A DNA stretch of 64,000 nt from Escherichia phage BF17, in the sequence record MW822008.1. One strand, written 5' to 3'. A program made the position numbers and the translations under genes. How positions within the stretch are numbered: position 1 is the first letter of the stretch; every line of letters begins with the position of its first letter. Below are positions 20,887 through 48,720 of the stretch, piece by piece. Below the pieces are notes generated by a model, which saw only the letters and a program-made list of their open reading frames with translations, was not told where the DNA came from and ran no database searches.

Positions 20887-20915
20887 TTGACTTAAGTGTT
20901 TAAGTACTATATTAT
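20887..20915 (+). promoter_or_regulatory. promoter: TTGACT-N17-TATTAT
   Basis: Second tandem promoter upstream of the 20951 gene. Confidence 0.5.
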
Positions 20916-20950
20916 TTATATCTTCCTAAACAAAATTGAGGACTTGTTAT

Positions 20951-30570: not shown

Positions 30571-31185
30571 ATGACTACATCTGAAAAGTACTGGTGGATT
30601 TTGGCTCATCCTAAATTCATAAACAAAGATATGGTTCCAGCTAGGATTGATATAGAACCTCATGATGTGTGTCCAATGACAAATCGAATTGAAGATTTCA
30701 AAGCATTGAATACAAAGACTCAATTTTGGGTAGAATTTCTTTCACCAATGTATATTGAGCAAGACGACGAATGGGTACAAGCACATGATTATCAATTGGA
30801 TTGTGGTGGTGATACGTATGAAGAGGCGATTGATAAATTATACAAAAATGTGCTAAACACATATGGTGATTACACCCAACAAGAAGCAGATAACACATTT
30901 AATAAGATCCATGCATTCAAATCTACTCCATCAATTTTTAATCCTACTAAAACTGTTTGGGAGGAACGACACAGTTGGAGTTCATGTGTAATCGATGAAG
31001 AAACCAAAGAAAAAATCATCGATGATATAAAAAATTTAAAAAATACGATAGAAGCCTTGCGTGAATTCATAATGTCTTGTACAATAGAACAACAGAAAGA
31101 GGCAAAGATACATTTGGAGAGTGAAGAATGTAAACTTTGGGTTCTAGAGAAATCTATTGAAAAGGGTATAGACTTAGACTTATGA
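30571..31185 (+). CDS. hypothetical protein
   Basis: ATG at 30571 after GGAG. Confidence 0.65.
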   Translation: MTTSEKYWWILAHPKFINKDMVPARIDIEPHDVCPMTNRIEDFKALNTKTQFWVEFLSPMYIEQDDEWVQAHDYQLDCGGDTYEEAIDKLYKNVLNTYGDYTQQEADNTFNKIHAFKSTPSIFNPTKTVWEERHSWSSCVIDEETKEKIIDDIKNLKNTIEALREFIMSCTIEQQKEAKIHLESEECKLWVLEKSIEKGIDLDL

Positions 31186-31550
31186 ATAGTAAATTGGAGA
31201 AACTAATCGAAGAATTACGCCAGATGCCACCTATTGAACAAGTAGGAAATTACAAACGGTATCGTGTTATTGCTCGTGCACTTGATAAAAAAGGTAGAGT
31301 ACTGGCAACTCGCACAAATTCTTATACACAGACTCACCCAGTACAGAAGGGTTTCGCCATTCGTGCTGGGCGACCGCAAGGTGAGTTTCTTCATGCTGAA
31401 ATTTCATGTTTACTGGCTGCTCGTGCTGATGTTCATACTTTACTGATTGCACGGATAAGTAAAGATGGAATTCCTGTTCCGGCTAAACCATGTGAAATTT
31501 GCTCATTAGCAATAAAAGAATATGGGGTGAAAGAGATTATCCACACATGA
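31182..31550 (+). CDS. cytidine/deoxycytidylate-deaminase-fold zinc enzyme (second deaminase)
   Basis: Contains HAE (FLHAEISCL) and PCEIC zinc motifs. The protein is compact at 122 aa. Confidence 0.7.
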   Translation: MNSKLEKLIEELRQMPPIEQVGNYKRYRVIARALDKKGRVLATRTNSYTQTHPVQKGFAIRAGRPQGEFLHAEISCLLAARADVHTLLIARISKDGIPVPAKPCEICSLAIKEYGVKEIIHT

Positions 31551-31768
31551 AAATTGAAAGATATGCTAAGCATACTGTTGGGTGTGTAAATGATATATTC
31601 TATTATTATATTTTTGCACCTGAACTACGTTTTCAAATCACAACATACAATGATGGCAGATTTAAAGATACAAACTTCCTCATAACCGACTTAGCAAAGT
31701 ATGCGAATACAGAACATTTTAATCATTTAGTATTTGTGTACTGTATACCAAACCCAAATAAAAAGTAG
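31547..31768 (+). CDS. hypothetical small protein
   Basis: ATGA overlap at 31547. Confidence 0.55.
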   Translation: MKIERYAKHTVGCVNDIFYYYIFAPELRFQITTYNDGRFKDTNFLITDLAKYANTEHFNHLVFVYCIPNPNKK

Positions 31769-31778
31769 GAGATTAAAA

Positions 31779-32138
31779 ATGGCTAAAACAATTTCTTTAA
31801 AAAATGAAAATGTAGGACAACGCAAAGATGGTTTCTTTGGTTTTTCTTGGACAACATTATTCTTTGGACCGTTCCCTGCATTGTTTCGTGGTGACTTTAT
31901 TACGTTCATCGGTGCATTCGTAATTTACTTCATCCTCAACGCAGTGTCATTTTGGATTGTGGGTACAATTGCAATGGTTGTATGGGCATTTCTTTATAAT
32001 AAGTACTACACCGTGAATCTCATCAAGAATGGGTATAAATTCAATGGCACACATGAAGAAAATGCTGAAGCTGCAATGGCTTTGCAAATTGATTTGAATA
32101 AAAACAACACAGTTGATAAAAATAAAGATCCTGAATAA
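31779..32138 (+). CDS. membrane protein
   Basis: ATG after AGGAG. Two hydrophobic helices (FGFSWTTLFFGPFPALF; FIGAFVIYFILNAVSFWIVGTIAMVVWAFL). Confidence 0.65.
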   Translation: MAKTISLKNENVGQRKDGFFGFSWTTLFFGPFPALFRGDFITFIGAFVIYFILNAVSFWIVGTIAMVVWAFLYNKYYTVNLIKNGYKFNGTHEENAEAAMALQIDLNKNNTVDKNKDPE

Positions 32139-32357
32139 ATGGAAAAATACGATATAATTTACGATTATTATGGTAAGGCTTATATGAAGTGTGGGCGTTA
32201 TGTTGAACTCTCTAATAGAGAATCAATAGACCCCCACACTCTTATAACAATTCATAATTCGTACTATAAAAAAGTTACAATAGCTAATTTTGCAACATAC
32301 GTAAATAATCCTTTATTTCCTTACATTATTCAGTACTACTGTAGAGTTATCAAATAA
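32139..32357 (+). CDS. hypothetical small protein
   Basis: ORF track. Confidence 0.55.
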   Translation: MEKYDIIYDYYGKAYMKCGRYVELSNRESIDPHTLITIHNSYYKKVTIANFATYVNNPLFPYIIQYYCRVIK

Positions 32358-32368
32358 GGTAAAAAGAA

Positions 32369-32779
32369 ATGTTAGCTGATGAATTTATGTCACTAAGTAT
32401 CAAGATATTTGATATACTAGGTGATGAAACAGATTTCAATCTAAGCGACAAAGATATTCCATTGGAAGATGGTGGATACTTTTTTGCGATTGGAACTACG
32501 TATAATCTGGATCTTTCAAAGCCTATCAGTGATGATAGTGATTATAATGCAACAACATATTTTGATTTCCAGCTTGATGGACATAAAGAGCGTTTACTAA
32601 CGTACAGACGTAAAGGTAGTTTCAATAGAACCGAGATTACAATAATGGATTTTGAAAAACGCATTGAACTAGCTAAGAAACATCCATTCATCAGTACTCA
32701 TACATTTAATAGACTAATCGATCTATTAGATAATTATCCATATACAATCCGAGGGTCGTTACGTTTAAATGCAGAATGA
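32369..32779 (+). CDS. hypothetical protein
   Basis: ORF track. Confidence 0.6.
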   Translation: MLADEFMSLSIKIFDILGDETDFNLSDKDIPLEDGGYFFAIGTTYNLDLSKPISDDSDYNATTYFDFQLDGHKERLLTYRRKGSFNRTEITIMDFEKRIELAKKHPFISTHTFNRLIDLLDNYPYTIRGSLRLNAE

Positions 32780-32954
32780 AATCTTCAAAAAAGAATACGA
32801 TGGTGAAAGTCTCTATGATATTCAAAGAGACGTACATGAAGCATTCGATTCAAGATTTAACCCATTAGCTGAACAAATCCCACAAGATGAGTTTGGTTTT
32901 CAGGAAGGCACTTTCACAGTGACTATTACATGGAGTCCAGATGAGACTAGCTAA
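32769..32954 (+). CDS. hypothetical small protein
   Basis: ORF track. Confidence 0.5.
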   Translation: MQNEIFKKEYDGESLYDIQRDVHEAFDSRFNPLAEQIPQDEFGFQEGTFTVTITWSPDETS

Positions 32955-33057
32955 ACTTGTCATAGGTTGTAGTGCACTTGCTGCATATATGCTTTTTTCC
33001 GCACCAACCAATGTATTACTGTTAATTTGGGCAGTTGTTATATTAGCAGTACTTTAA
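32941..33057 (+). CDS. very small hydrophobic peptide (38 aa)
   Basis: My own translation: MRLAKLVIGCSALAAYMLFSAPTNVLLLIWAVVILAVL. It ends at the terminator at 33057. Confidence 0.4.
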   Translation: MRLAKLVIGCSALAAYMLFSAPTNVLLLIWAVVILAVL

Positions 33058-33079
33058 AGCACCCTAGTGGTGCTTTTTC
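33057..33079 (+). terminator. intrinsic terminator
   Basis: AAGCACC-CTAGT-GGTGCTT with a T run. Confidence 0.7.
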
Positions 33080-33113
33080 TATTTGTGCAAATAAAAACCA
33101 ATGTGACTTTTCC

Positions 33114-33127
33114 TTGATATAGGTCAA
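33114..33127 (+). promoter_or_regulatory. FNR/CRP-family box TTGAT-ATAG-GTCAA
   Basis: Matches 9 of 10 positions of TTGAT-N4-ATCAA. Centred at 33120.5, which is 41.5 bp upstream of the start predicted from the -10 at 33150..33155. Confidence 0.55.
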
Positions 33128-33149
33128 GAGAAATAACCTGTTCTGACGC

Positions 33150-33155
33150 TATAAT
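33150..33155 (+). promoter_or_regulatory. -10 hexamer TATAAT of the nrdD promoter (no good -35)
   Basis: Perfect TATAAT. The -35 region is poor, as expected for an activator-dependent class II promoter. Confidence 0.5.
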
Positions 33156-33216
33156 GTTGTCTGGTGATATTAAATATCTTCACCCCCAGATGATTTCAAA
33201 ATACAAGGAATGTACA

Positions 33217-35022
33217 ATGCAATTAGATAAATTATATACTGACGTAACGAATTTCCTCAATCAGAGCAATACTGATCTTACCAACGAAAATGCGAACAAA
33301 GATGCGAAATGCGTCAATACACACAGGGATTTACTTGCAGGTATCCTATCTAAGCATTATTCACAAGATGTTATTCCAAATGAGCTAATGCAGTGGCATA
33401 ATGATGGTTATGGTCATATTCATGATTTAGACTACTATATCAGCCCATTAACCAACTGTTGCTTAGTTAACTACCCAGATATGCTAAAAAATGGATTTAC
33501 CATTGGTTGTGCCAAAATTGAAGAACCAAAGAGTTTTAGTGTAGCATGTACAGTACTGACACAGATTGTACAAGCTGTAGCTAGTTCCCAATACGGCGGT
33601 CAATCGTTGGCTCACATTGATGTCGGTTTAGAACCTTACGTTCAAAAGTCATGGGATAAGCTGTTAGAAAAACAAAAGAAATATAATCTAAGTGATGAGT
33701 TCATTGAAGAAGAATTACGAAAAGAAGTATACGATGGATGTCAAACATTACTTTACCAGACTAATTCAATGATTAGCACTAATGGACAAGCTGCATTCAT
33801 TTCTCTTAGTTTAGGGCTTAATACTTCTAAATTTGGTAAATTAATCACTGAACAGTACTTAAAAGTTCATGAGAATGGTTTAGGTAAAGATAAGATTACT
33901 CCAGTGTTTCCTAAAGTAATTTTCTTTTTACAAGATGGTATAAACATGAATACCAATGATAGTAATTATGACCTTAAACAGTTAGCTATGCGTTGTGCAT
34001 CAAAACGAATCTACCCAGACTTTGTTTCAGTTCCATTAAATCACAAAGTGACGGGAAGTAGTAGTACTGCTGTAACACCGATGGGATGTCGTTCATTCTT
34101 AGGAAAATGGGAAGATTCAAATGGAAATGAACAATACAACGGTCGTTTCAATTTAGGTGTGGTTTCTATCAATTTACCTCTAATTGCTCTTGAGAGTGAT
34201 TCTGATGGAGAGTTTTTTGATAAGATAGACGAGCATATGAATATTGCATATCGTGCTCAGATGAACCGTGTGGAGCGTTTAAAAGGCACTAAAGCGAAGC
34301 AGAATCCAATTTTGTTCATGGAAGGTGCATTAGCACGTTTAGGTGCAGAAGAAACCATTGACAAGCTATTTTACAATGGTTATGCTAGTATTAGTATTGG
34401 TTATGTTGGTCTTGTTGAATGTTCAGAAATCCTCACTGGTTCTATCAGTAAGGAGTTTTGTATGTCAGTACTGAATTATATGAAAGTAAAATGTGATGAG
34501 TTCAAAAAAGAAAGTAATATTGCTTTTAGTCTATATGGAACTCCAGCAGAGTCGCTTTGTTATAAATTTGCACGTTGCATTGAAGCAAAATATCCTTCAG
34601 TACTAAAACGTGATTACATCACAAATTCCTTCCATCAACCAGTATGGGTAGAAAGTTCTCCATTTGATAAATGGAGTTATGAAGAAGGGTTTGCTTACCT
34701 AAGTAACGGTGGAAACATCAGTTATGTTGAATCTCCAAACTTAGCAAACAACATTCAAGCACTTGAAACATTAGTTAACTATGCGTACACTAAGATACCA
34801 TATTTTGGTATTAACCAACCAGTTGACCATTGTTATGAATGTGGCTTCCAGGGTGAGTTCAGTGTAGATAAACATGGTTTCCACTGTCCTGTATGTGATA
34901 ATCGTAATGAGAAGACAATCTCAGTGATTCGTCGTGTTTCTGGGTACTTGGGTAATCCTTCTTCGCGTGGCTTCAATAAAGGCAAGCAACAAGAGTGTTG
35001 TGAGCGTATTCAGCACAAATAA
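33217..35022 (+). CDS. nrdD: anaerobic ribonucleoside-triphosphate reductase
   Basis: NENANKD...RDLLAGI...HIHDLDYY parallels the T4 NrdD N-terminus as I recall it. The C-terminus has the Zn site CxxC...CPVC and the glycyl-radical motif RRVSGYLG. Start moved to ATG 33217 (AAGGA upstream) because track start 33154 overlaps the -10. Confidence 0.9.
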   Translation: MQLDKLYTDVTNFLNQSNTDLTNENANKDAKCVNTHRDLLAGILSKHYSQDVIPNELMQWHNDGYGHIHDLDYYISPLTNCCLVNYPDMLKNGFTIGCAKIEEPKSFSVACTVLTQIVQAVASSQYGGQSLAHIDVGLEPYVQKSWDKLLEKQKKYNLSDEFIEEELRKEVYDGCQTLLYQTNSMISTNGQAAFISLSLGLNTSKFGKLITEQYLKVHENGLGKDKITPVFPKVIFFLQDGINMNTNDSNYDLKQLAMRCASKRIYPDFVSVPLNHKVTGSSSTAVTPMGCRSFLGKWEDSNGNEQYNGRFNLGVVSINLPLIALESDSDGEFFDKIDEHMNIAYRAQMNRVERLKGTKAKQNPILFMEGALARLGAEETIDKLFYNGYASISIGYVGLVECSEILTGSISKEFCMSVLNYMKVKCDEFKKESNIAFSLYGTPAESLCYKFARCIEAKYPSVLKRDYITNSFHQPVWVESSPFDKWSYEEGFAYLSNGGNISYVESPNLANNIQALETLVNYAYTKIPYFGINQPVDHCYECGFQGEFSVDKHGFHCPVCDNRNEKTISVIRRVSGYLGNPSSRGFNKGKQQECCERIQHK

Positions 35023-35805: not shown

Positions 35806-35809
35806 CATA

Positions 35810-35832
35810 AGCACCCGTTGGGTGCTTTTTTA
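35810..35832 (+). terminator. intrinsic terminator after nrdG
   Basis: AGCACCC-GTT-GGGTGCT followed by T6. Confidence 0.75.
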
Positions 35833-35881
35833 TTATGTATATAAATACATTAACTAATATCTAATTTATAAGGGATATATA

Positions 35882-38578
35882 ATGTCAAAGAAAATATATG
35901 GTGGCTTAGATGTCACACATAATGTGACAGTTAATGGTAAAAGAACAATTCAAGGAATAAATGAACAAGTTTTTGATTCCAACGGTAACTTGGAATTAGA
36001 TACTTATTCCAGAGATGAAGTACTAGATATAGTAAGTATGATGCCAATCTCCCATTATGGTTCACAAAACTATCTACCTGCGGGTGTTTCTGGGGATTTC
36101 AATGGTGCATCAGAAAACCAGTCACAACGTAGAAATAAAATTTTATTAGAAAACGATGGTACACTAGTACTTTTACGTAGTGGGACAAACGGTAGTGTTG
36201 AGGGATTATTTTATTCATATTTGGCTAACGCATTATCAGTTGATGACATGAGCCGTACAATTAACACTAGTCGTCAATACAAGCCTGGGTTTTTTGGTTC
36301 AAATAGAGTTGCGATTGGTTTATACAATACTGATCCAAATATTTTACTCGGTAGATATATTGATACTTCTAACAGTACTAATGGTTTGTTCATATCAATT
36401 ACCAATGGTACATTAGATGATAAATTGCATACTGGTTTTTTCGTTAACCAAGCAGATATATCACCTGAAGGTGGTATTGAATATGCTATGATGGCAGAAG
36501 ATGGTTCTATATATGTTTTTAACGTACTTAATGAAAATAACCAACTACAATTAGTTGTTGTAAAAGTTGTTTATAATATAAGCAATGGTACTTATACTGC
36601 AACTCGAATTACTGGATGGACTACTAAAACATTTTATAACACGACATATTCTGCACAAAATAATATGGTTATTACTAATCAGGTAACATCAACAAATATT
36701 GCTGATAAACCTTATGTGTATGTTCCACAAAATCTACGTGGTATTGGGATTTACATGACATCAATTGATTTATATGTTGCACAGCAGCCAGGAACGCAGA
36801 ATTTCCGCTTTAGAATGAACGGGGACGCTTGGTTTACAATGGCAACATATAATACACGTCCACAGCATAGTTACAGTTTTGTGTTCAATATGAGTACTAA
36901 ACAATGTACATTAGATGCGGGTAACGATATTGGTTCATATCAAGCACCATTAGTTATAACTAATACTGGTTCGGCATTAGTTCCTACTGGTAACGTTTTA
37001 AATAACGATCCATTGTATAACCATGCAAATGCAAGAAACATTTATAGTTCATATTTTTATTTGAATTCTGGTGAAGCTTTTTGTACTACATGTCCAAACT
37101 TAGCAGAACCATTACTTATGCAAAAAGCTAAGTTTCCTATTCAAATAGTTTATAGTATGCTGAATGTCCGTGCTGTACTTTCTACTGACTTCAAAGGTGG
37201 TATAGTTCGCCCGTCTTTTGGTTCAGCGGTTGGTTCATTTATTAATGGTGTAGAATTACTACCAGATAACAGTACTAAACAATATTCACGTGCATCAGGT
37301 AGTGGTGGATTTAGACCATCATATGCAGTTCATAAAAGTACTCCTAATTTTACATTTAAATCATTATCTTTAGGAACAATACAAGGTTATGAACCTACAG
37401 TTGAACGTGCTAATGTTGATGATAATGCAAATAATAGAATTTTTATTAGTAGTATTTCTGGGTCAACTGTCACAACCAATGGTGGTATTTTTATGGTTGG
37501 GCAACGTTATTCACAATCATTATCCTATGATAAAAACTTAAATGGCACAGGAATTATAAGCGTTACACAATCAGTACTGGACAATTTTAGAAATACTGAA
37601 TATGCCAAAGTTCTAAGTGATTGGAATTTATCAGCACAAGCATACCGTGATATGACACTATTTGTTCCACAACAAACAGACATTCCAGCTTTTGTTATGT
37701 TGAGTACAATTACTAATGATTATAGAAACTATATTAGAATTGCTGAAGTTAATGTCAATACTAGAGTTGGTAATATTACATCTATTACATTTAAGCGTTT
37801 AGTACTTGAGAATACGTATGGTGATAACTTTACACCAACTGGGAATGGTTCGATTGCATCTTCTTCTGTTGGTTTGACCATATATGATGGTGGTTCATTC
37901 TACTTCATTGGTGGTTCTGACCCATTATCACATCCAACAATAGGTAATACTGCAACTCATCAATTTAGAGCATATGTAACTAAATCAACTGCACAATTTA
38001 CAAGTTTTATAATTACTGGATCTCATGCCAGTTATGAACAAGGAAGTCAACCAGCAGCATTACCTGGTATTGGTTTTGGAATTTTTGAACCAATGGATTA
38101 CTCAAATAAAATGACATTCAAAAAATATGGAACAACGATTGCAGACTATAATAACTGGACTGCACAAGGTAGCCCAATTAACGTAGTATCCCAGGACGTT
38201 GCTCAAGGGTTTATTGTATATTTTACAGAGGAAACACCAGTTATTCTTTCAGGTAAGTCATTTTCACTACCAGTTTCAAATATTGATTTGAGAACTATTA
38301 AGTCTAATCCAGCAAATACAACATTTTATGTATATGTTAAATTGGAACAAGGATTGGCAAACTATTACATAACTACTGATGTTATTTCTGAAACAGGGAC
38401 AACTGCATATAATATTTTTTGGATAGGTACAATTCAAACTAATGCAATTCAAATCGAAACAATTAATATACAAAAACGTTCCCGTTTAGATATATTTGGT
38501 GCTTCACTTGAATCAGCAGGTTCATCGTTCCCAGTTAGCTACGGTCTACCATCACAAACAGGAACCATAAACTGGTAA
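35882..38578 (+). CDS. tail fibre protein (long paralog 1)
   Basis: 898 aa, rich in Gly/Ser/Thr/Asn. Shares N-terminal, sub-terminal and C-terminal modules with 38590 and 39194. Confidence 0.7.
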   Translation: MSKKIYGGLDVTHNVTVNGKRTIQGINEQVFDSNGNLELDTYSRDEVLDIVSMMPISHYGSQNYLPAGVSGDFNGASENQSQRRNKILLENDGTLVLLRSGTNGSVEGLFYSYLANALSVDDMSRTINTSRQYKPGFFGSNRVAIGLYNTDPNILLGRYIDTSNSTNGLFISITNGTLDDKLHTGFFVNQADISPEGGIEYAMMAEDGSIYVFNVLNENNQLQLVVVKVVYNISNGTYTATRITGWTTKTFYNTTYSAQNNMVITNQVTSTNIADKPYVYVPQNLRGIGIYMTSIDLYVAQQPGTQNFRFRMNGDAWFTMATYNTRPQHSYSFVFNMSTKQCTLDAGNDIGSYQAPLVITNTGSALVPTGNVLNNDPLYNHANARNIYSSYFYLNSGEAFCTTCPNLAEPLLMQKAKFPIQIVYSMLNVRAVLSTDFKGGIVRPSFGSAVGSFINGVELLPDNSTKQYSRASGSGGFRPSYAVHKSTPNFTFKSLSLGTIQGYEPTVERANVDDNANNRIFISSISGSTVTTNGGIFMVGQRYSQSLSYDKNLNGTGIISVTQSVLDNFRNTEYAKVLSDWNLSAQAYRDMTLFVPQQTDIPAFVMLSTITNDYRNYIRIAEVNVNTRVGNITSITFKRLVLENTYGDNFTPTGNGSIASSSVGLTIYDGGSFYFIGGSDPLSHPTIGNTATHQFRAYVTKSTAQFTSFIITGSHASYEQGSQPAALPGIGFGIFEPMDYSNKMTFKKYGTTIADYNNWTAQGSPINVVSQDVAQGFIVYFTEETPVILSGKSFSLPVSNIDLRTIKSNPANTTFYVYVKLEQGLANYYITTDVISETGTTAYNIFWIGTIQTNAIQIETINIQKRSRLDIFGASLESAGSSFPVSYGLPSQTGTINW

Positions 38579-38589
38579 AGGATTACATA

Positions 38590-39177
38590 ATGGCATATAA
38601 AATAAGAGCAGACCTTAAGGCAATGCAACAAGTTACAGTTCAGGGTAAAAGTACTGGTCTTGGTGTATTAGGTAATAATATGACTTATTACCCAACAAAT
38701 TCAAATGGGGAATGTACATTCCCCTCTATTACCAAAGATGAAGTTAACTTTATTGTCAATGGATTACCACTTACACAATACGGAGAATTGTATGATGACG
38801 CTAGTCTAAATATTACTTCATCAGGCTATAGTCTTACATTTAATAGACAGATACCATCATTTATTGGTGGTTATCTTTATAAATTTCCAGCAGTTTCTAT
38901 TTTTGCTTCAACTGTTTCATCTGGAACACAAACACAATACGTATATGCAACGTTAGTTCTCGGTGAACCAATTTATAAAATATCACCAACACAAATACAA
39001 GAATCTGAAATTATAATGTTTATTGGAACACTGACCGTTGGTACAAGTGGTATTACAAATATAAACATTAATAAAGTATCCAGATTTAGTACATATAGAC
39101 CTAGTGTTACACAAAAAGGTTCTTCATTCCCAGTCAGTACTGGAAAACCATCAGAAACTGGTACAATTGGTTGGTAA
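38590..39177 (+). CDS. short tail-fibre paralog (195 aa 'mini-fibre')
   Basis: N-terminus (ITKDEVNFIVNGLPLTQYGE) and C-terminus (SRFSTYRPSVTQKGSSFPVSTGKPSETGTIGW) match both long fibres. Confidence 0.6.
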   Translation: MAYKIRADLKAMQQVTVQGKSTGLGVLGNNMTYYPTNSNGECTFPSITKDEVNFIVNGLPLTQYGELYDDASLNITSSGYSLTFNRQIPSFIGGYLYKFPAVSIFASTVSSGTQTQYVYATLVLGEPIYKISPTQIQESEIIMFIGTLTVGTSGITNININKVSRFSTYRPSVTQKGSSFPVSTGKPSETGTIGW

Positions 39178-39193
39178 ATTAAGGAAAAGAAAG

Positions 39194-41923
39194 ATGTCAT
39201 CAAAACGAATTATAGGAAGTGCCGAGATCCTTGGGAACTTGGCAATTGGACAAAGGTACGCTATGCGTACTTTTAATGGAACCTCACCGAATGCCAATAC
39301 TGGAATTGTTCAATATCCAATATATAAGCGTTCAGAAGTTCAAAGTATTTTAGATATGTTGCCTATATCACGTGTAGGAGAAATGGATTACTTACCATTA
39401 AACGTAAGTGGGTCGTATGAAGGTGCTACACCTATGTCAAGTGACCAAGTAGTTCAGCCAACAATTATTGAAGATGATGGAACCGCCGTTGTTCTGCGTA
39501 GCGGAACCAATGGTAGTACTAAAGGTTTTTATTATTCATTTATACGAGAACTCCGAAATATAACTATGATTTCACAAGAAAGTGTTATTTCAACCAATTC
39601 AATGTATAAACCTTCAATTATGAGTAGTACTGAAAATATTAAGTATTTTATTGGCTCTAATGGTTATGAGATGCTTGGATGTTTAAGTACTGAAGATAAT
39701 TATATTTTTACTATAACCAATGGCACATTTAACGAAATATCACATATTCATGCTAAAGTGCCAAGTACTTCTTTTGGTAATGATATGCCAATATATACAC
39801 ATATTGTTGGGACAAAGGTTTATATTTGGTGTAAAGATAAAAGTGTTTCTAATTTAGGATTAGCACTTTCAATTTATACAGTAGAGCTAAGTGATGTGAA
39901 AGCAAGCTCAATGGCATCATTAACAAAAGTTACTGGGTTATCAGGTCAAACTGTTCGAAACACAAGTTATTCTGCATCTAATAACATAAGAGTGTTCGAT
40001 AAATTATATAGTGTTGGTACTAGCTCGGATTCATTATTCGAAGTTACATCACCAGTATCACGTGTAGAATTTTCAGACTATACAGACTTTAACATTCAAG
40101 CCAACGTTAGTCCTGATTTATCAAAAATACGTGTAACTTTATATCCAACACATCGAATGGTTACACCTTTGTATATTTCAACAGTTTATGGTACTGGAAT
40201 AAGTTTTGTTTATAATATAAACTCAAAATCTATGTCACTAGATGGTAGTGCTCGTGCACCTGCAACTGTTTCATATAATAATGGATTTCAAGTTTCTAAC
40301 CCATTTGAAATTAATATGGTCAACTTCACAGGGACAACTGCTGCTGGTGTATTAGGAAACGCAGGTGGTTTATGTCAAACTAAAGATGGTTTGGTATTTG
40401 CATCTAAATTTAGATGGAGTTCAACTGAATTTTATGGTCTACAACGATATAAGGTTAGTGGTACACCGTTTGATTCATGGGTTGCCAGTACTAGAACCGC
40501 AAGTAACGTTATAAATGCAAACGTTTTACCAGTTTTTGGTAGTGCTGTTGGTGCAAACCTTTTAGGTGTACGTTTCATCGATAATAGAAAAATATTATTA
40601 GCATGTTCTGGTACGTATGATGATGTAACATATAATTATAATAATACTGTTTTTTCTGAAATAGGTTCACAACCAACATATCAATATAACTCAGTTCAAA
40701 ATAATACTACATTAAATGGTTTTGCACCACAATCTAATCGTAAACAAATAGGCGATGATTTTACATACACTGCTATGATTTCTCTTGTTGATACCGATGG
40801 TAGTGTTAGATGCTATGGAACATCATTCATTGAAGGTGTATATAAAACAAGTGGTGGATTATTAAACCCAGATACTTTAGAATTTGATGAAACATATACA
40901 ATAGAACCAACGGTATTAGAATCATTAAAACAAGATATTTTTGCTAATATAGGAAACTCTGGCATTGTTGGCACACTATCTGGACAAATTGTATTATATT
41001 ATGTACCTGATAATACTTTTTCTAAATCCATCGCAGTAGTTTCAGCATATAATCTTAACAATAACCAAGGTTATGCAATCTATGCCGAAGTTGATGTTGT
41101 ATTATCTGGAACTAACATAACTTCAGCTACATTGGTGAGTACTAGATATGAGACACTTAGTTCTGTTACAGGAATTATTACTGAAGCATATATGAAACGT
41201 TGTACTGGTCTAACAGTTGCAAAATATTCAGGATTTGGTTACATTGGTGTTGATGCTGTTCATCAATTTTCACAACCAGGTAATGCACAATTTAAGATGA
41301 TGATAGCTAAAACAGTAGATGGTGTCATAACATCAAATCGTTTTTTATCATCTAGTTACATCCAACTTGGTGCAGCATATCAACATGGTGTTATTCCTGG
41401 TGTTGGTTTTGGATATTACAATTTTCAAGATTCTGACTATCAAACCAAATCTGTATTCAGCGTTTTTGGTACAACATCTGCTGAAATGGATGGTTTAATT
41501 AGTGGAAATGGTAGCGTTAAAGAAAAGATTGTGGTAGTATCACAAGACGTTGCACAAGGATTCTCAGTGTACTTTACACGTGAAGTTCCGGTGTTTTTAG
41601 GTGGAATTTTCGACAGACTACCTATACAAAGTGTTGATTTAAGTACTGTAAAAAGTAACCCAGCTAATACTACGTTCTATTTGTATATACAAATGAACAG
41701 GAATACTAAGAAAGCGTCATATGTTATTAGTACTGAAACAATTGATGAATCTTTAACTAGCACTTACATTGGTAAGATAGTTACTGGAACTTCAGGAATA
41801 ACTTCAATTGATACAGAAAAAGTAACTCGTTTTTTGACATATCGTCCAAGTACAACGAAACGTGGTTCAGCGATACCTGCCAGTACTGGTGTACCATCAG
41901 GTCCAGGTACACGTTGGAAATAA
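39194..41923 (+). CDS. tail fibre protein (long paralog 2)
   Basis: ATG at 39194 after AAGGAAAAG. VVSQDVAQGFSVYFT...SNPANTTFYLY parallels 35882. Confidence 0.7.
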   Translation: MSSKRIIGSAEILGNLAIGQRYAMRTFNGTSPNANTGIVQYPIYKRSEVQSILDMLPISRVGEMDYLPLNVSGSYEGATPMSSDQVVQPTIIEDDGTAVVLRSGTNGSTKGFYYSFIRELRNITMISQESVISTNSMYKPSIMSSTENIKYFIGSNGYEMLGCLSTEDNYIFTITNGTFNEISHIHAKVPSTSFGNDMPIYTHIVGTKVYIWCKDKSVSNLGLALSIYTVELSDVKASSMASLTKVTGLSGQTVRNTSYSASNNIRVFDKLYSVGTSSDSLFEVTSPVSRVEFSDYTDFNIQANVSPDLSKIRVTLYPTHRMVTPLYISTVYGTGISFVYNINSKSMSLDGSARAPATVSYNNGFQVSNPFEINMVNFTGTTAAGVLGNAGGLCQTKDGLVFASKFRWSSTEFYGLQRYKVSGTPFDSWVASTRTASNVINANVLPVFGSAVGANLLGVRFIDNRKILLACSGTYDDVTYNYNNTVFSEIGSQPTYQYNSVQNNTTLNGFAPQSNRKQIGDDFTYTAMISLVDTDGSVRCYGTSFIEGVYKTSGGLLNPDTLEFDETYTIEPTVLESLKQDIFANIGNSGIVGTLSGQIVLYYVPDNTFSKSIAVVSAYNLNNNQGYAIYAEVDVVLSGTNITSATLVSTRYETLSSVTGIITEAYMKRCTGLTVAKYSGFGYIGVDAVHQFSQPGNAQFKMMIAKTVDGVITSNRFLSSSYIQLGAAYQHGVIPGVGFGYYNFQDSDYQTKSVFSVFGTTSAEMDGLISGNGSVKEKIVVVSQDVAQGFSVYFTREVPVFLGGIFDRLPIQSVDLSTVKSNPANTTFYLYIQMNRNTKKASYVISTETIDESLTSTYIGKIVTGTSGITSIDTEKVTRFLTYRPSTTKRGSAIPASTGVPSGPGTRWK

Positions 41924-41929
41924 ATTTAA

Positions 41930-41957
41930 AGCTCGTCTATTGACGGGCTTTTCTTTT
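41930..41957 (+). terminator. intrinsic terminator after the tail fibre genes
   Basis: AGCTCGTC-TATT-GACGGGCT followed by TTTCTTTT. Confidence 0.7.
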
Positions 41958-41990: not shown

Positions 41991-42557
41991 ATGGTCAAAT
42001 CTTTATTACCGCCACCAAAACGTCACAAAATCAAAGAAATGAAAGAACAACGTACATTAAAGATGTACATCAATTTAGTTAAGTTACTGTGTAAAAGTCC
42101 ATCGCTCAAAGCAGAGTTTAAAACTGATGATGACCGCAAAGCACTAATTGAGATGAAGTATATGCTCAGTAAAATGTCCTTTTACAAATTTGTAAAAGAA
42201 TACGCATCTGACCCATTTAGTCCTCGTTGGAGAGCCAAACCAAGAGAGTATTTTTACGGTGGTTCATATACGGATCTCATTCAAGACACAGTGATGGGAG
42301 TTGAATTTGAAATCGATTATGAGCCGAATGGTGTGGAAAGCTGGCCGATTGAGAAACGTTTACCAAGTGAAGAAGAAATTTATGTTTATGCAAGAAAACT
42401 TTCAAATTTCAGTTCAAGAATTACTCTAGGCAATTTAGATTCATTTATTATTTTCTATACACGTGTTGGTGTAGATAAAATGGTAACTAAACTCAATGAA
42501 CTTTCATTACAACAAAAACAGATTAATGCATACAAAGACATTACTGATTTATACTAA
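41991..42557 (+). CDS. tandem-paralog protein A
   Basis: AGGAGG upstream. Shares the (D/N)DxR(K/R)x(L/I)I(E/D)xKYxLSK motif with the next two ORFs. Confidence 0.65.
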   Translation: MVKSLLPPPKRHKIKEMKEQRTLKMYINLVKLLCKSPSLKAEFKTDDDRKALIEMKYMLSKMSFYKFVKEYASDPFSPRWRAKPREYFYGGSYTDLIQDTVMGVEFEIDYEPNGVESWPIEKRLPSEEEIYVYARKLSNFSSRITLGNLDSFIIFYTRVGVDKMVTKLNELSLQQKQINAYKDITDLY

Positions 42558-42563
42558 TGAGGA

Positions 42564-43085
42564 ATGGATATGTTTTTTGGATCAGTTGGAAAACAAAACA
42601 GTACTTTAATTTGGCATGAAATTATCTTTAAAATTATATCTAAAAGCTACTCACTAAAGGATATTATCACCACAGATAATGATAGACGTATCCTGTTAGA
42701 TGCAAAATATAAATTGAGCAAACACCCTTTACTTTCTTTAATCATTGATTACGTTAATGATTATGAATCTAGTCGTTGGAAGTGGGAAGACGGCGGTTTA
42801 TTTCGTGGAAAAACATTCTACGGTGCGGAACGATATGTTTTCAGTGATACATCAAATGGCGTTAAGTTTGCTATTAGAAACTTTAACTCCAAAGAAAATG
42901 ATTATCTTGAAAGTGGAGTGAAAGTATATATCGATAATAATAGCAATGTACTAACATATGACGAATCACTAATTATGTTACAAATAATGCGTGGAGTTGA
43001 AGGTGTAAGAAACAACCTTACTAAATTGAAAATCCAGCAAAATGATATACATAATAGACAGAAAATTAAGGGTTTATATAAATGA
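42564..43085 (+). CDS. tandem-paralog protein B
   Basis: Contains TDNDRRILLDAKYKLSK. Confidence 0.65.
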   Translation: MDMFFGSVGKQNSTLIWHEIIFKIISKSYSLKDIITTDNDRRILLDAKYKLSKHPLLSLIIDYVNDYESSRWKWEDGGLFRGKTFYGAERYVFSDTSNGVKFAIRNFNSKENDYLESGVKVYIDNNSNVLTYDESLIMLQIMRGVEGVRNNLTKLKIQQNDIHNRQKIKGLYK

Positions 43086-43591
43086 TTTCATTTTTCAAAA
43101 AGAAACAAAAAGTTGATGAAACCGGATTAGAATCGTTTCTGTGGACTCTTATCATCAAAAAAAGCCCATTGATGAAAGAATATGCTATCAATGATGCTAA
43201 TAGAAAAACTATCATTGAATACAAATATGAATTATCTAAATGTGATCCAATTGTTTATCACTTTGCGAAGTACTGTTCAAAAAATTTATCGGATATCACA
43301 ATCGACCACGAGTCAGTCCCGATGAGTTTTCCTTATGGTGATTGGGTAGATACTTTTGATATTTTTGATGGGTCAAATGGTTTCAGTTTCTTTTACTCGT
43401 CAAATAAAGCAAATGTTCGTATTAAAACAGACATAGGTTGGACACAGCATAGCTCAAATAAAGAAGATTATAATTTATTAGCTGACGTATACCGAAGTGT
43501 GAAGAATTCAAAGGATATTGATGAAAGAATTAAAAAGCAAAATCGTATATCTTTATCACTTGAAACATACAAGTCAAAGTATGGTGGTTAA
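43082..43591 (+). CDS. tandem-paralog protein C
   Basis: Contains NDANRKTIIEYKYELSK. ATGA overlap with the upstream stop. Confidence 0.65.
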   Translation: MISFFKKKQKVDETGLESFLWTLIIKKSPLMKEYAINDANRKTIIEYKYELSKCDPIVYHFAKYCSKNLSDITIDHESVPMSFPYGDWVDTFDIFDGSNGFSFFYSSNKANVRIKTDIGWTQHSSNKEDYNLLADVYRSVKNSKDIDERIKKQNRISLSLETYKSKYGG

Positions 43592-45930: not shown

Positions 45931-48720
45931 ATGTTAAACAATAATATTGATAATATTGTACAACTTCTTTATGGGCATCACAAATTTATTGAAAGAAATA
46001 CTGGTGATACAATAGACCCAACAGTACAACATTATGTGGTGAATAATCAGGGTGTTTTGGCGAACAACCGTCATTTTATTAACTATTCTGCAATGGAAGG
46101 TCAACCAAACGGTGACGGGACAACAGAAGGTCAAAGTCTATTAATTTTAGGATACATTTATGCGTATCTGGCAACAAATGATCCAATGTTTTTAGATAAG
46201 GCAAAGTGGTACTGGGACGCATATCATCAGTACTTTTATGCTGGACGTGAATTACCAGATCCACCTACACCACTACAATGTAACTGGATAGTTAATGCCA
46301 AAGAACCTATATTGGCTAACTGGCCTTTAGCTGATGATGGCTGGCCCACACATGGTGGTTTCAAGGGAGTAGAATTTACATTTACTAATGGTCAATGTAA
46401 AATACCACATGGTGCACCATATTATGGTCAGTTCTTGGATAAAGTGACATTTGCATTCAAAGGTGCGTTAGCATGGAACCAAATAAATGCTTCAGTAAAA
46501 GCATTATTACCAGATGGTAGTGTTGATTGGGATACACCAGGTGAACAATATGATGTTGACTGGATTATCGATTTCATGGGTAGAAAAATCGACTGGGATG
46601 GTAATATTTTAGAAGAAGGTTTTGACGAATCTGAAAAAGGAACTGTTCAATTAAAGAATACAACAATTAATGGTGTATATAAATTAAATTTTGCAAATCG
46701 TCAACCAGTAGAATATGGTGGTGTGATAATTCAACGAAATGAAATGCAACACAACCGCCCTCTTCATGTTCCAATTGATTTGGAATTTGCTGATAACGCA
46801 TCAGATGCAGAATTATGGTTTAGTGATGCTTCTTATTTGTTATATAAAATAACAAAAGAAAGAAAACATTATTTGGGTTGGAAATGTTCACTACTAACGT
46901 GTTATGCTTATGGTGATATTGACTCCAGAGATAAATTTTTCAGACAAAGTACAATTGTAACCACACCATTCACTGATGGTATTTCCTATGAATATTTTTA
47001 TCCTAGTGATGCTATTGCTAAGTTTGGTAGAAATTCTCTAGGATATATTACTATCAGGCAAGACCAAAGTGCACAAAGTACTATGGAACAACAAGCTATT
47101 TGGTTCAGGGTCAATGCTGATTCTAAATTACTTGTAGACTATGGTGGTGTATGTGATGATGGTAAGCCGTTATCATTTAAACCAGTACTGGAATTGTCAA
47201 AAACAAAAAATGACCATGATGTTGTTCGTTATCGTTGTGGCTTACCGGAAAGTAAAGACCAAAATATCACACATTCATTAACACCTTTAAGTGCATTTGT
47301 TAGAGAAAAGAAAGCAGATGGTTCCCCTTATATAATTGCTGATAGTAGAATTGTTGTTCCTTATGGTGCAGCTACGTCCGAAATGATATATAGTACTGAT
47401 ATATTAGTTACACGCCGCGATACCATTAATCAGTTAGTTTGTGGTGAAGATGATGGTGCTGTTATTGGATTTTGGCTATTAGCAACAAATAAGTCTGAAG
47501 TTAAATCTTTTACCTATCGTTCATATGAAGATGATTACAATATAAGAATTGTAGATGATAATGGTTGGAGATGGTGGTGGATGATTCCTGCAACACACGG
47601 GGAATGGACTACAATCACACTAAGTTCCGATACATTACGTTTATCTGGGTATCAGCCAAATCATCCAAGTTCTGACCCAAGACCAGATGCACCAGTTTAT
47701 AGTGAACTAGAAGATATTACTATTTTACCTGATACAACCCCAGTAGATGGTGTTGCTGCAATAATTGATTGGTATTGTATTAATGACATTCCAGAATTAT
47801 ACACGGATGCTGACGGTGATGACTATACTATGACATTTTCAATAACAATTGCAGGTGAATCACCATATACTGCACAGTTAGGGGATTGTGTAATCAAGGA
47901 TTATTTGTTAAACTCATTGCATTACACACCAGGAACAATACCATTTTCTAACATCACTGACCCGTATGCGAACCAGTATTCAGGATGGCGTGGTTTACCG
48001 TATCCAGGTTATCAATATCCTGTGATATATTGTTTTAAAGACCAGCCAGTAGATAACACACGCTTAGGAAACATGTTAAGCTTTATGAAAGATTCCCAAA
48101 CATGGTTTACTCAACAATTCGGTACTGTTGGTCCGTGTGCACAAGCATATGTTTGGAACCGCTGGGATAACTTAAAATATGGTGAACCAGATACATTTAC
48201 TATGCTACATTGGGGTGATCAAGCATGGAGTGGGTATGAACCACGTGCGTTCTTTGGGGCTGCCAGAGCATGGCAAGAACTCGCAGAGAGAGGAATTGAA
48301 CCACCAGCAGATCTTGTTGAATTTTGTGAGAATTGGATTCACTTTTTAATTCAATTTCAAAAAGATAATGATGGTCGTTCACCAACAATCTTCAATAAAG
48401 ATGGCACAGTTGAAGGTCCAGATTGGGACTTTACAGGTCATATGTGTGGGTTGTGGTTAGCTGGGGCTTGTGCTGCTGGATTGGCTGGATGTAAAATAGA
48501 AGGTCTAACAACACTCGCTGATAACTTAGTTCTCGAACTTCAAAAGAATTATGTTATTGTAAATCCAGGTTCACCAATGAATGGTTCATGGAGTCCAGCA
48601 GTTAGAGAAGGTACTGATAATGGTATGTTTTTTGGTTTCTGGGCAGGTGAGATTATGCGTGGATTGGGATTATACTCAATGTACCGCTTAAACACACCAA
48701 ATCGTTTCCGTGATTTATAA
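45931..48720 (+). CDS. large (929 aa) protein in the tail-gene block; function unknown, possibly tail-associated or carbohydrate-active
   Basis: Long Trp/Tyr/Gly-rich ORF directly after fibre-like genes. No motif I can name. Confidence 0.6.
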   Translation: MLNNNIDNIVQLLYGHHKFIERNTGDTIDPTVQHYVVNNQGVLANNRHFINYSAMEGQPNGDGTTEGQSLLILGYIYAYLATNDPMFLDKAKWYWDAYHQYFYAGRELPDPPTPLQCNWIVNAKEPILANWPLADDGWPTHGGFKGVEFTFTNGQCKIPHGAPYYGQFLDKVTFAFKGALAWNQINASVKALLPDGSVDWDTPGEQYDVDWIIDFMGRKIDWDGNILEEGFDESEKGTVQLKNTTINGVYKLNFANRQPVEYGGVIIQRNEMQHNRPLHVPIDLEFADNASDAELWFSDASYLLYKITKERKHYLGWKCSLLTCYAYGDIDSRDKFFRQSTIVTTPFTDGISYEYFYPSDAIAKFGRNSLGYITIRQDQSAQSTMEQQAIWFRVNADSKLLVDYGGVCDDGKPLSFKPVLELSKTKNDHDVVRYRCGLPESKDQNITHSLTPLSAFVREKKADGSPYIIADSRIVVPYGAATSEMIYSTDILVTRRDTINQLVCGEDDGAVIGFWLLATNKSEVKSFTYRSYEDDYNIRIVDDNGWRWWWMIPATHGEWTTITLSSDTLRLSGYQPNHPSSDPRPDAPVYSELEDITILPDTTPVDGVAAIIDWYCINDIPELYTDADGDDYTMTFSITIAGESPYTAQLGDCVIKDYLLNSLHYTPGTIPFSNITDPYANQYSGWRGLPYPGYQYPVIYCFKDQPVDNTRLGNMLSFMKDSQTWFTQQFGTVGPCAQAYVWNRWDNLKYGEPDTFTMLHWGDQAWSGYEPRAFFGAARAWQELAERGIEPPADLVEFCENWIHFLIQFQKDNDGRSPTIFNKDGTVEGPDWDFTGHMCGLWLAGACAAGLAGCKIEGLTTLADNLVLELQKNYVIVNPGSPMNGSWSPAVREGTDNGMFFGFWAGEIMRGLGLYSMYRLNTPNRFRDL

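Follow-up and report, generated by a model that had tools for sequence, protein, structure and literature searches.

Candidate baseplate-fibre paralogues of giant phages, with and without their central body, in a three-gene unit of Escherichia phage BF17

The three genes and their shared modules

A window of 64,000 nucleotides (nt) from Escherichia phage BF17 (record MW822008.1; the window is the whole stretch of DNA analysed) holds, at positions 35882 to 41923, three tandem genes, here called A, B and C, for proteins of 898, 195 and 909 amino acids (aa). This 6-kb region is 100% identical to its counterpart in phAPEC6 (vB_EcoM_phAPEC6, MK817115, Asteriusvirus, 352 kb), under whose name it is discussed below, and 94-99.8% identical to those of PBECO4, 121Q and other jumbo coliphages. 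Genes A and C encode full-length paralogues and gene B one reduced to the terminal modules (the mini), and the three belong to a widespread family of giant-phage virion proteins that is best filed under paralogous baseplate-fibre proteins. The three open reading frames (ORFs) had been delimited correctly in a preliminary description of the sequence (898 aa, 35882-38578; 195 aa, 38590-39177; 909 aa, 39194-41923), and the features of the locus are as follows.

35809..35827, + strand: terminator-like hairpin after nrdG (8 pairs, 5 of them G-C, and a T run), upstream boundary of the unit
35840..35847, + strand: TATAAATA, T4-late-promoter-like motif, 35 nt 5' of the ATG at 35882
35882..38578, + strand: gene A, 898 aa (gp323c of phAPEC6), from the ORF list
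aa 1-75 (35882-36106), + strand: gene A, N-module
aa 76-770 (36107-38191), + strand: gene A, predicted beta-propeller body
aa 771-865 (38192-38476), + strand: gene A, C-terminal beta-sandwich module
aa 866-898 (38477-38575), + strand: gene A, conserved C-tail
38590..39177, + strand: gene B, body-less paralogue of 195 aa, by BLASTP and PHROG 26864
aa 1-67 (38590-38790), + strand: gene B, N-module
aa 68-78 (38791-38823), + strand: gene B, linker
aa 79-164 (38824-39081), + strand: gene B, C-module
aa 165-195 (39082-39174), + strand: gene B, conserved C-tail
39194..41923, + strand: gene C, 909 aa, by BLASTP and PHROG 3573
aa 1-77 (39194-39424), + strand: gene C, N-module
aa 78-783 (39425-41542), + strand: gene C, predicted beta-propeller body
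aa 784-909 (41543-41920), + strand: gene C, C-module plus tail
41928..41951, + strand: terminator-like hairpin 5 nt past the gene C stop (10 pairs, 5 of them G-C, and a T run), downstream boundary of the unit

The three modules (N-terminal, sub-terminal, C-terminal) that the preliminary description had proposed as shared are real and significant, and the motifs quoted for them are present in the alignments. In BLASTP the 195-aa and 909-aa proteins have 43% identity in a C-terminal match of 120 aa (E 7e-24) and 32% in an N-terminal match of 44 aa (E 1e-3); the 195-aa and 898-aa proteins have 36% in a C-terminal match of 125 aa (E 1e-16) and 34% in an N-terminal match of 85 aa (E 5e-7). These matches, with the alignment to the phage CBB protein CBB_148 treated below, bear out that it consists of the N- and C-terminal modules without a centre. 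The further statement that the central regions of the two large proteins are dissimilar is refuted: the proteins can be aligned along their entire length (945 columns, 28% identity, E 3e-64), their centres alone align at 24% identity over 709 aa (E 7e-21), and both match PHROG 3573 along the whole of its profile (E 1.7e-274 for the 898-aa and 7.7e-267 for the 909-aa protein). The centres of A and C, being homologous, are thus diverged versions of one fold rather than unrelated cassettes. The 195-aa protein matches PHROG 26864 at positions 1-195 (E 4.4e-115), its further PHROG matches being only 3573 and 7449. A tblastn search of the window revealed no fourth copy of the module set, and tblastn with the mini finds exactly three matching places in the whole phAPEC6 genome. 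Pfam gave no match for the three window proteins, 10 diverse family members or the homologues from Erwinia phage RAY; PDB sequence searches with single proteins and with profiles A1 (built from the mini family) and A2 returned nothing meaningful; and the RisingSun/Joad and jumbo-phage overview papers do not treat the family.

Each of the three genes has a separate Shine-Dalgarno-like motif and its own stop codon, an arrangement conserved in relatives. The longest form of the third ORF starts at a GTG at 39104 and overlaps the 195-aa gene, but the ATG at 39194 is the better start for gene C because an AAGGAA Shine-Dalgarno-like motif lies 8-13 nt 5' of it, the alignment with the 898-aa protein starts at residue 2-3 in that numbering, and the UE-S1 and EC.P1 annotations have the same start (MSSKRIIG). 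The two terminator-like hairpins enclose exactly genes A-C, and the UE-S1 record annotates a terminator at the place corresponding to the first, at 35809-35827. The motif TATAAATA, which is the T4 late-promoter consensus, occurs twice in the 64 kb (35840-35847 and 20913-20920) against 12.8 occurrences expected from shuffles, and so strong a depletion suggests that it is functional in phAPEC6; the CBB paper describes an ATAAATA motif 5' of structural genes and reports a gp55-like sigma factor. From the late-promoter-like motif and the hairpins, genes A-C are probably co-transcribed late in infection.

AlphaFold2 (AF2) models the 898-aa protein with a mean predicted local distance difference test score (pLDDT) of 86.9 and a predicted template-modelling score of 0.79; an all-beta body spans residues 80-770 with pLDDT above 90, and the ~40 residues at the start and the ~25 at the end are modelled with low confidence. 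The mini is modelled confidently only at residues 70-160, as a beta-sandwich (pLDDT 85-95). The 12 best Foldseek matches of the mini model in the PDB come without exception from phages, and most are receptor-binding or tail-fibre proteins, among them the lactococcal p2 receptor-binding protein (RBP), Bordetella Mtd, the cyanophage A-1(L) fibre and SPP1 gp22. The body is predicted to consist of beta-propellers resembling carbohydrate-binding or carbohydrate-cleaving ones (lectins, glycosidases); its likeness to the phi11 RBP (5efv), the phi92 endosialidase (4hiz), AAL-type fucose lectins and sialidases is a generic propeller similarity at 5-10% sequence identity. The AF2 models contain no long extended fibrous shaft (coiled coil, beta-helix or triple beta-spiral), only globular propellers and the beta-sandwich.

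Orthology classes and body-less members

The same trio occurs at the same position, just after nrdD/nrdG, in the Mimasvirus phages CBB (CBB_147, CBB_148 and CBB_149, of 902, 916 and 916 aa) and GAP32 (GAP32_143-145), in one-to-one orthology with A, B and C and annotated as hypothetical or structural proteins. The CBB trio differs from that of phAPEC6 in that all three tandem proteins are full length, the middle gene having kept its body. C-module identities define three classes: class A (65-84%) comprises the 898-aa protein, CBB_147, Hallingskeid 524 and XbC2_139; class B (43-48%) comprises the 195-aa protein, CBB_148, Hallingskeid 523, XbC2_140 and XaC1_224, with 71% identity between the C-modules of its two Mimasvirus members CBB_148 and XbC2_140; and class C (52-70%) comprises the 909-aa protein, CBB_149, Hallingskeid 522 and XaC1_225. 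Judged from these sequences, the trio of classes A, B and C is ancient.

The preliminary description had offered, as one of several explanations for the mini, a fibre that has lost its centre, and this is borne out. Profile A1 matches CBB_148 at residues 1-94 (E 5e-21) and 797-916 (E 4e-45), far better than it matches CBB_147 or CBB_149, so that the 195-aa protein is, by position and by sequence, the orthologue of the 916-aa CBB_148 minus ~700 residues. The missing part is closely flanked by an LPxxQYG motif on its N-terminal side and, on its C-terminal side, by the G(F/Y)x(L/V)xF with which the C-module opens, and all minis aligned have this junction in common. The 195-aa protein and the Hallingskeid mini (45% identity) also have a common linker, YD.A.LNITSS, which points to a single old deletion that preceded their split. 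In MAFFT alignments the linker of the 195-aa protein, YDDASLNITSS (aa 68-78, 38791-38823), pairs with a body segment, LSYD...ISIS, of CBB_148 and of the 898-aa and 909-aa proteins; the match could be the remnant of a hairpin or due to chance, and is too short to interpret.

Across 12 clusters, with identities as low as 46%, the mini has kept a length of 190-202 aa; 40 columns are invariant, many of them within the C-tail. The ratio of non-synonymous to synonymous substitution rates (dN/dS, by the Nei-Gojobori method) is 0.12 against UE-S1 and 0.19 against EC.P1 for the mini, 0.12 and 0.09 for gene A, and 0.19 and 0.13 for gene C. On these measures the mini is a maintained, functional gene under purifying selection. 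A decaying remnant was rejected on the dN/dS values and the conserved length, and an origin by frameshift from, or fusion with, a neighbour on the mini's own stop codon, spacer and Shine-Dalgarno-like motif, which are conserved in relatives.

Body-less members recur. Hallingskeid, like phAPEC6, has two big proteins and one mini; XaC1 (L008, 4413-8325) has tandem minis of 190 and 194 aa followed by one full-length member of 911 aa, so that there the class-A position, too, is held by a mini. With the mini as query, tblastn finds the C-module in 96 phage records, including Rak2-like phages and, among chimalliviruses, Ea35-70/RAY-like Erwinia phages, EL-like Pseudomonas phages and a Salmonella phage, and among the matches listed 50 of 60 phage records have exactly three copies per genome. 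An exhaustive profile search of 1.84 billion representatives (clustered at 50% identity; cut-off E <= 1e-3) yielded 538; among the best 147 of these, 52 measure 160-260 aa, 71 measure 861-1050 aa and 9 measure 1051-1250 aa, the body-less share being about one third. The minis of the family have several unrelated N-terminal types, and all four metagenomic minis that were looked up, which are unrelated to one another, directly adjoin a full-length paralogue of the same N-terminal type. The metagenomic sets are big + mini (L015), big + mini + mini (L017), mini + big + mini (L016) and, on a short contig, big + mini (L018). Taken with CBB, phAPEC6, Hallingskeid, RAY and XaC1, these sets make three look like a conserved unit, of which up to two chains seem able to do without the propeller body. 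Annotators should therefore not dismiss body-less paralogues beside full-length ones as fragments, and such paralogues offer a simple test of mixed-paralogue fibre assembly in giant phages.

Virion association, gp131-type fibres and modes of assembly

Published mass spectrometry of purified phAPEC6 virions detected the product of gene A, gp323c, with 4 unique peptides and 5.6% coverage (PMC7247149). In the phAPEC6 record, gene A (as a hypothetical protein) is the only one of the three that is annotated; over genes B and C (38590-41923, corresponding to MK817115 239579-242912) the record has nothing but a 114-nt ORF, "gp322c", which lies inside gene C; other records annotate three hypothetical proteins here. 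The reference annotation thus omits two of the three genes, and the published virion proteome probably could not have detected either product.

A location for the family is suggested by chimalliviruses. Profile positions 52-897 match RAY gp19 and gp20, pEa_SNUABM_37 gp20 and gp21 and Proteus phage 10 proteins with E 1e-112 to 1e-153, and what varies between phage lineages is the N-terminal part. The RAY genes concerned are the following.

RAY gp16: homologue of phiKZ gp130 (E 2e-27)
RAY gp17: gp131-type N domain only
RAY gp18 (420 aa): gp131-type N domain and C-module; body-less member
RAY gp19 (1163 aa): gp131-type N domain, body and C-module
RAY gp20 (1151 aa): short N-terminus, body and C-module
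RAY gp21: spike

RAY thus has two big members and one mini, and its arrangement recurs at the gp130/spike locus of EL, Proteus phage 10 and pEa_SNUABM_37; the gp131-type N domain is recognised in EL114/115, Pr10_b/c, S37_19/20 and RAY17-19 with E 1e-7 to 1e-26. RAY gp20 (L019, 9415-12870) has ~150 extra residues past the conserved C-tail, the profile match ending at residue 1001 of 1151, so that the C-tail is not always the C-terminus. A crystal structure of the C-domain of phiKZ gp131 was reportedly determined by Sycheva in 2012. In the cryo-electron microscopy (cryo-EM) structure of phiKZ, six gp131-type N domains (three of gp131 and one each of gp133, gp134 and gp135) make up the fibre base, a hetero-hexamer that sits beneath gp130 at the outer periphery of the baseplate, with the gp131 propeller facing the host (PMC13250141). 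No transposon insertions occur in any of phiKZ gp131-135, including the 110-aa gp132, and the gp131 relative SPN3US gp168 is listed as a baseplate/fibre protein. The N-domain fusions, the gp130/spike locus and the phiKZ structure together indicate that the body and C-module of the chimallivirus proteins form the distal part of gp131-type fibres. By analogy, and with the support of gp323c in virions, a baseplate-fibre location can be proposed for the phAPEC6 proteins. A sizeable family (the 538 representatives), for which there is no Pfam model and whose PHROGs are labelled "unknown function", thereby acquires an anatomy and a link to the phiKZ gp131 fibre.

The likeness between the two systems is partial. 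Like the phAPEC6 trio, phiKZ gp131-135 are tandem paralogues with a common terminal module and one very short member (gp132, 110 aa); the phiKZ paralogues co-assemble into one mixed fibre base, and none is redundant according to transposon sequencing. The head of gp131 is a beta-propeller, whereas the phAPEC6 bodies are propellers by prediction only; in place of the ~250-aa gp131-type N domain the phAPEC6 proteins have an unrelated N-module of ~75 aa, phiKZ itself has no C-module, and the phAPEC6 unit lies away from baseplate genes. The label of tail fibre given in the preliminary description is therefore apt only in part: the mass spectrometry of gp323c, the late-promoter-like motif and the chimallivirus fusions favour a fibre-type role, but the body is predicted to be globular and without a fibrous shaft.

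The reading that we favour, with a probability of about one half, is that genes A-C form one late three-gene unit for an ancient trio of virion proteins that would make up a baseplate-fibre-type complex, its chains probably co-assembling. A full-length chain begins with a lineage-specific N-module, which presumably attaches to the virion or forms the stalk, and continues with the ~700-aa predicted propeller body, the ~95-aa beta-sandwich and the ~33-aa C-tail, the most conserved piece; the 195-aa chain is a class-B chain from which the whole body has been cut out cleanly at the domain borders. A, B and C would co-assemble through the modules common to their two ends, the simplest form being an A:B:C heterotrimer, and the complex would be a peripheral baseplate fibre or receptor-binding complex with three propeller lobes in CBB, two in phAPEC6 and one in XaC1, the mini chain filling a scaffold position without a lobe. 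More tentatively, such a hetero-oligomeric and probably heterotrimeric fibre, with a tunable number of lobes (3, 2 or 1) and obligatory body-less scaffold chains, might represent a hitherto undescribed type found in Rak2-like phages, chimalliviruses and many uncultured giant phages. If the propellers bind or cut surface glycans, the genes of the unit would be candidate determinants of host range, of relevance to engineered therapeutic jumbo coliphages.

Several observations weigh against this proposal. The unit follows nrdD/nrdG and precedes small genes of unassigned function and a nucleotidyltransferase gene, surroundings of nucleotide metabolism rather than a tail module, and it is not beside a gp130 homologue or spike gene, unlike its counterparts in RAY, EL, Proteus phage 10 and pEa_SNUABM_37. 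The phAPEC6 proteins do not have the ~250-aa gp131-type N domain, and profiles A1, A2 and A3 gave no significant match to phiKZ gp131-135. The mass spectrometry for gene A is thin, at the 4 peptides and 5.6% coverage cited, and there is none for B or C; no family member has been localised in any virion; and CBB_148 and CBB_149, though labelled "structural protein", do not appear in the mass spectrometry of Table 4 of the CBB paper, for which reason that label was not counted as evidence. The Foldseek matches of the mini are weak (E ~1e-2, template-modelling score 0.37-0.44), and those of the propellers are generic. The AF2 monomers are of low confidence in the N-module and C-tail, and co-assembly is a matter of pure inference, as is the stoichiometry.

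Most characterised phage fibres are homotrimers, and it is conceivable, if rather unlikely, that the three genes specify three separate homo-oligomeric fibres, those of A and C bearing propellers and the mini forming a head-less stub (a strut, plug or adaptor) that does not bind receptors. Class-specific signatures kept over long divergence would fit three distinct attachment sites, and the phiKZ fibre itself has a gp131 homotrimer besides its mixed base. Separate fibres, however, do not explain a copy number that holds at three whether 3, 2 or 1 of the chains have bodies, or the fact that minis always adjoin a big paralogue of the same N-terminal type.

Small genes beside fibre genes often encode assembly factors, and the mini could on that precedent be a non-virion protein that transiently imitates the ends of A and C, acts as a template or chaperone while these fold or attach, and is absent from the mature particle; that it has no virion evidence in phAPEC6, where it is unannotated, would agree with this. 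We consider such a role improbable: the mini is a true orthologue of a full-length paralogue of structural type, it matches no tail-fibre-assembly family in Pfam or the PHROGs, it keeps the N-module by which the big proteins would attach, and its RAY counterpart, gp18, is annotated as "virion structural protein".

Somewhat less probable still is polymerisation head to tail, each chain binding by its C-tail, predicted to be disordered, to the N-module of its neighbour. The resulting flexible filaments might be the "hairy" whiskers seen in phAPEC6 and CBB, and the mini would act in them as a spacer that bears no lobe. The C-tail is indeed the most conserved segment (82% mean identity among the class-A orthologues considered below), with a pLDDT of only 30-40 in the monomer models. 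A precedent exists in Goslar gp22/gp23 (DUF7941), long and short virion-associated paralogues, the short form without the globular domain of the long one, which are proposed to polymerise head-to-tail through a conserved disordered segment that would serve assembly (bioRxiv 10.64898/2026.04.21.720040). The Goslar pair, however, has no sequence relationship to the phAPEC6 trio and another domain order, and the DUF7941 model PF25613, which matches phiKZ gp127 as a control (E 1.2e-27), matches none of the three window proteins. Whiskers are not reported for GAP32, which has the trio, and the low abundance of gp323c in mass spectrometry argues against a polymer of many copies.

Allele replacement and neighbouring genes

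The preliminary description had interpreted the modular architecture as cassette exchange, in which unrelated receptor-binding centres are swapped on a constant scaffold of N- and C-terminal modules. Some of the variation in the family has the look of it, in that the ends are better conserved than the centre: across 41 class-A orthologues (45-86% identity), mean identity to the 898-aa protein is 64% in the N-module, 51% in the body, 70% in the C-module and 82% in the C-tail. The body of gene C likewise evolves faster than its ends (62% against 80-90% identity to UE-S1; dN/dS 0.23 against 0.07), and there are local recombination patches between phAPEC6 and 121Q. Body identity, however, falls smoothly with overall divergence, and none of the 41 orthologues, compared with swapped centres in mind, has a replaced one; A and C have homologous centres (E 7e-21), and conservation of the centre extends to chimalliviruses (E 1e-112 to 1e-153). 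Cassette exchange is thus not supported; it is already contradicted for the sequences examined, and we regard it as very improbable for the family.

The patches themselves tell of another process. Between phAPEC6 and 121Q the flanks are 98-100% identical and gene A only 87-92% (35882-38381), with 266 nucleotide differences, mostly synonymous, and 36 amino-acid differences; a further patch, in the body of gene C (39382-40381), has 94-96% identity. Between these two phages nearly all of gene A, including the N-module, is replaced by an allele diverged by ~10%, a span that does not fit exchange of the centre alone, and the alignments identify these patches as mosaic allele replacement by homologous recombination. 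Further diverged patches against 121Q lie upstream, at 30882-33881 around the nrdD region, in unrelated genes.

The annotated tail-fibre gene gp314c (45931-48720) was considered as a further paralogue and rejected, since its product belongs to PHROG 2871 (tail protein) and has no tblastn match. The gp314c protein has been detected by mass spectrometry, and 121Q annotates an extra "tail fiber" ORF of 173 aa just upstream of its gp314c homologue. Directly downstream of the three-gene unit stand three tandem small paralogues of 188, 173 and 169 aa (41991-42557, 42564-43085 and 43082-43591), which correspond to PHROGs 18641 and 7868 and form a second local gene-duplication array.

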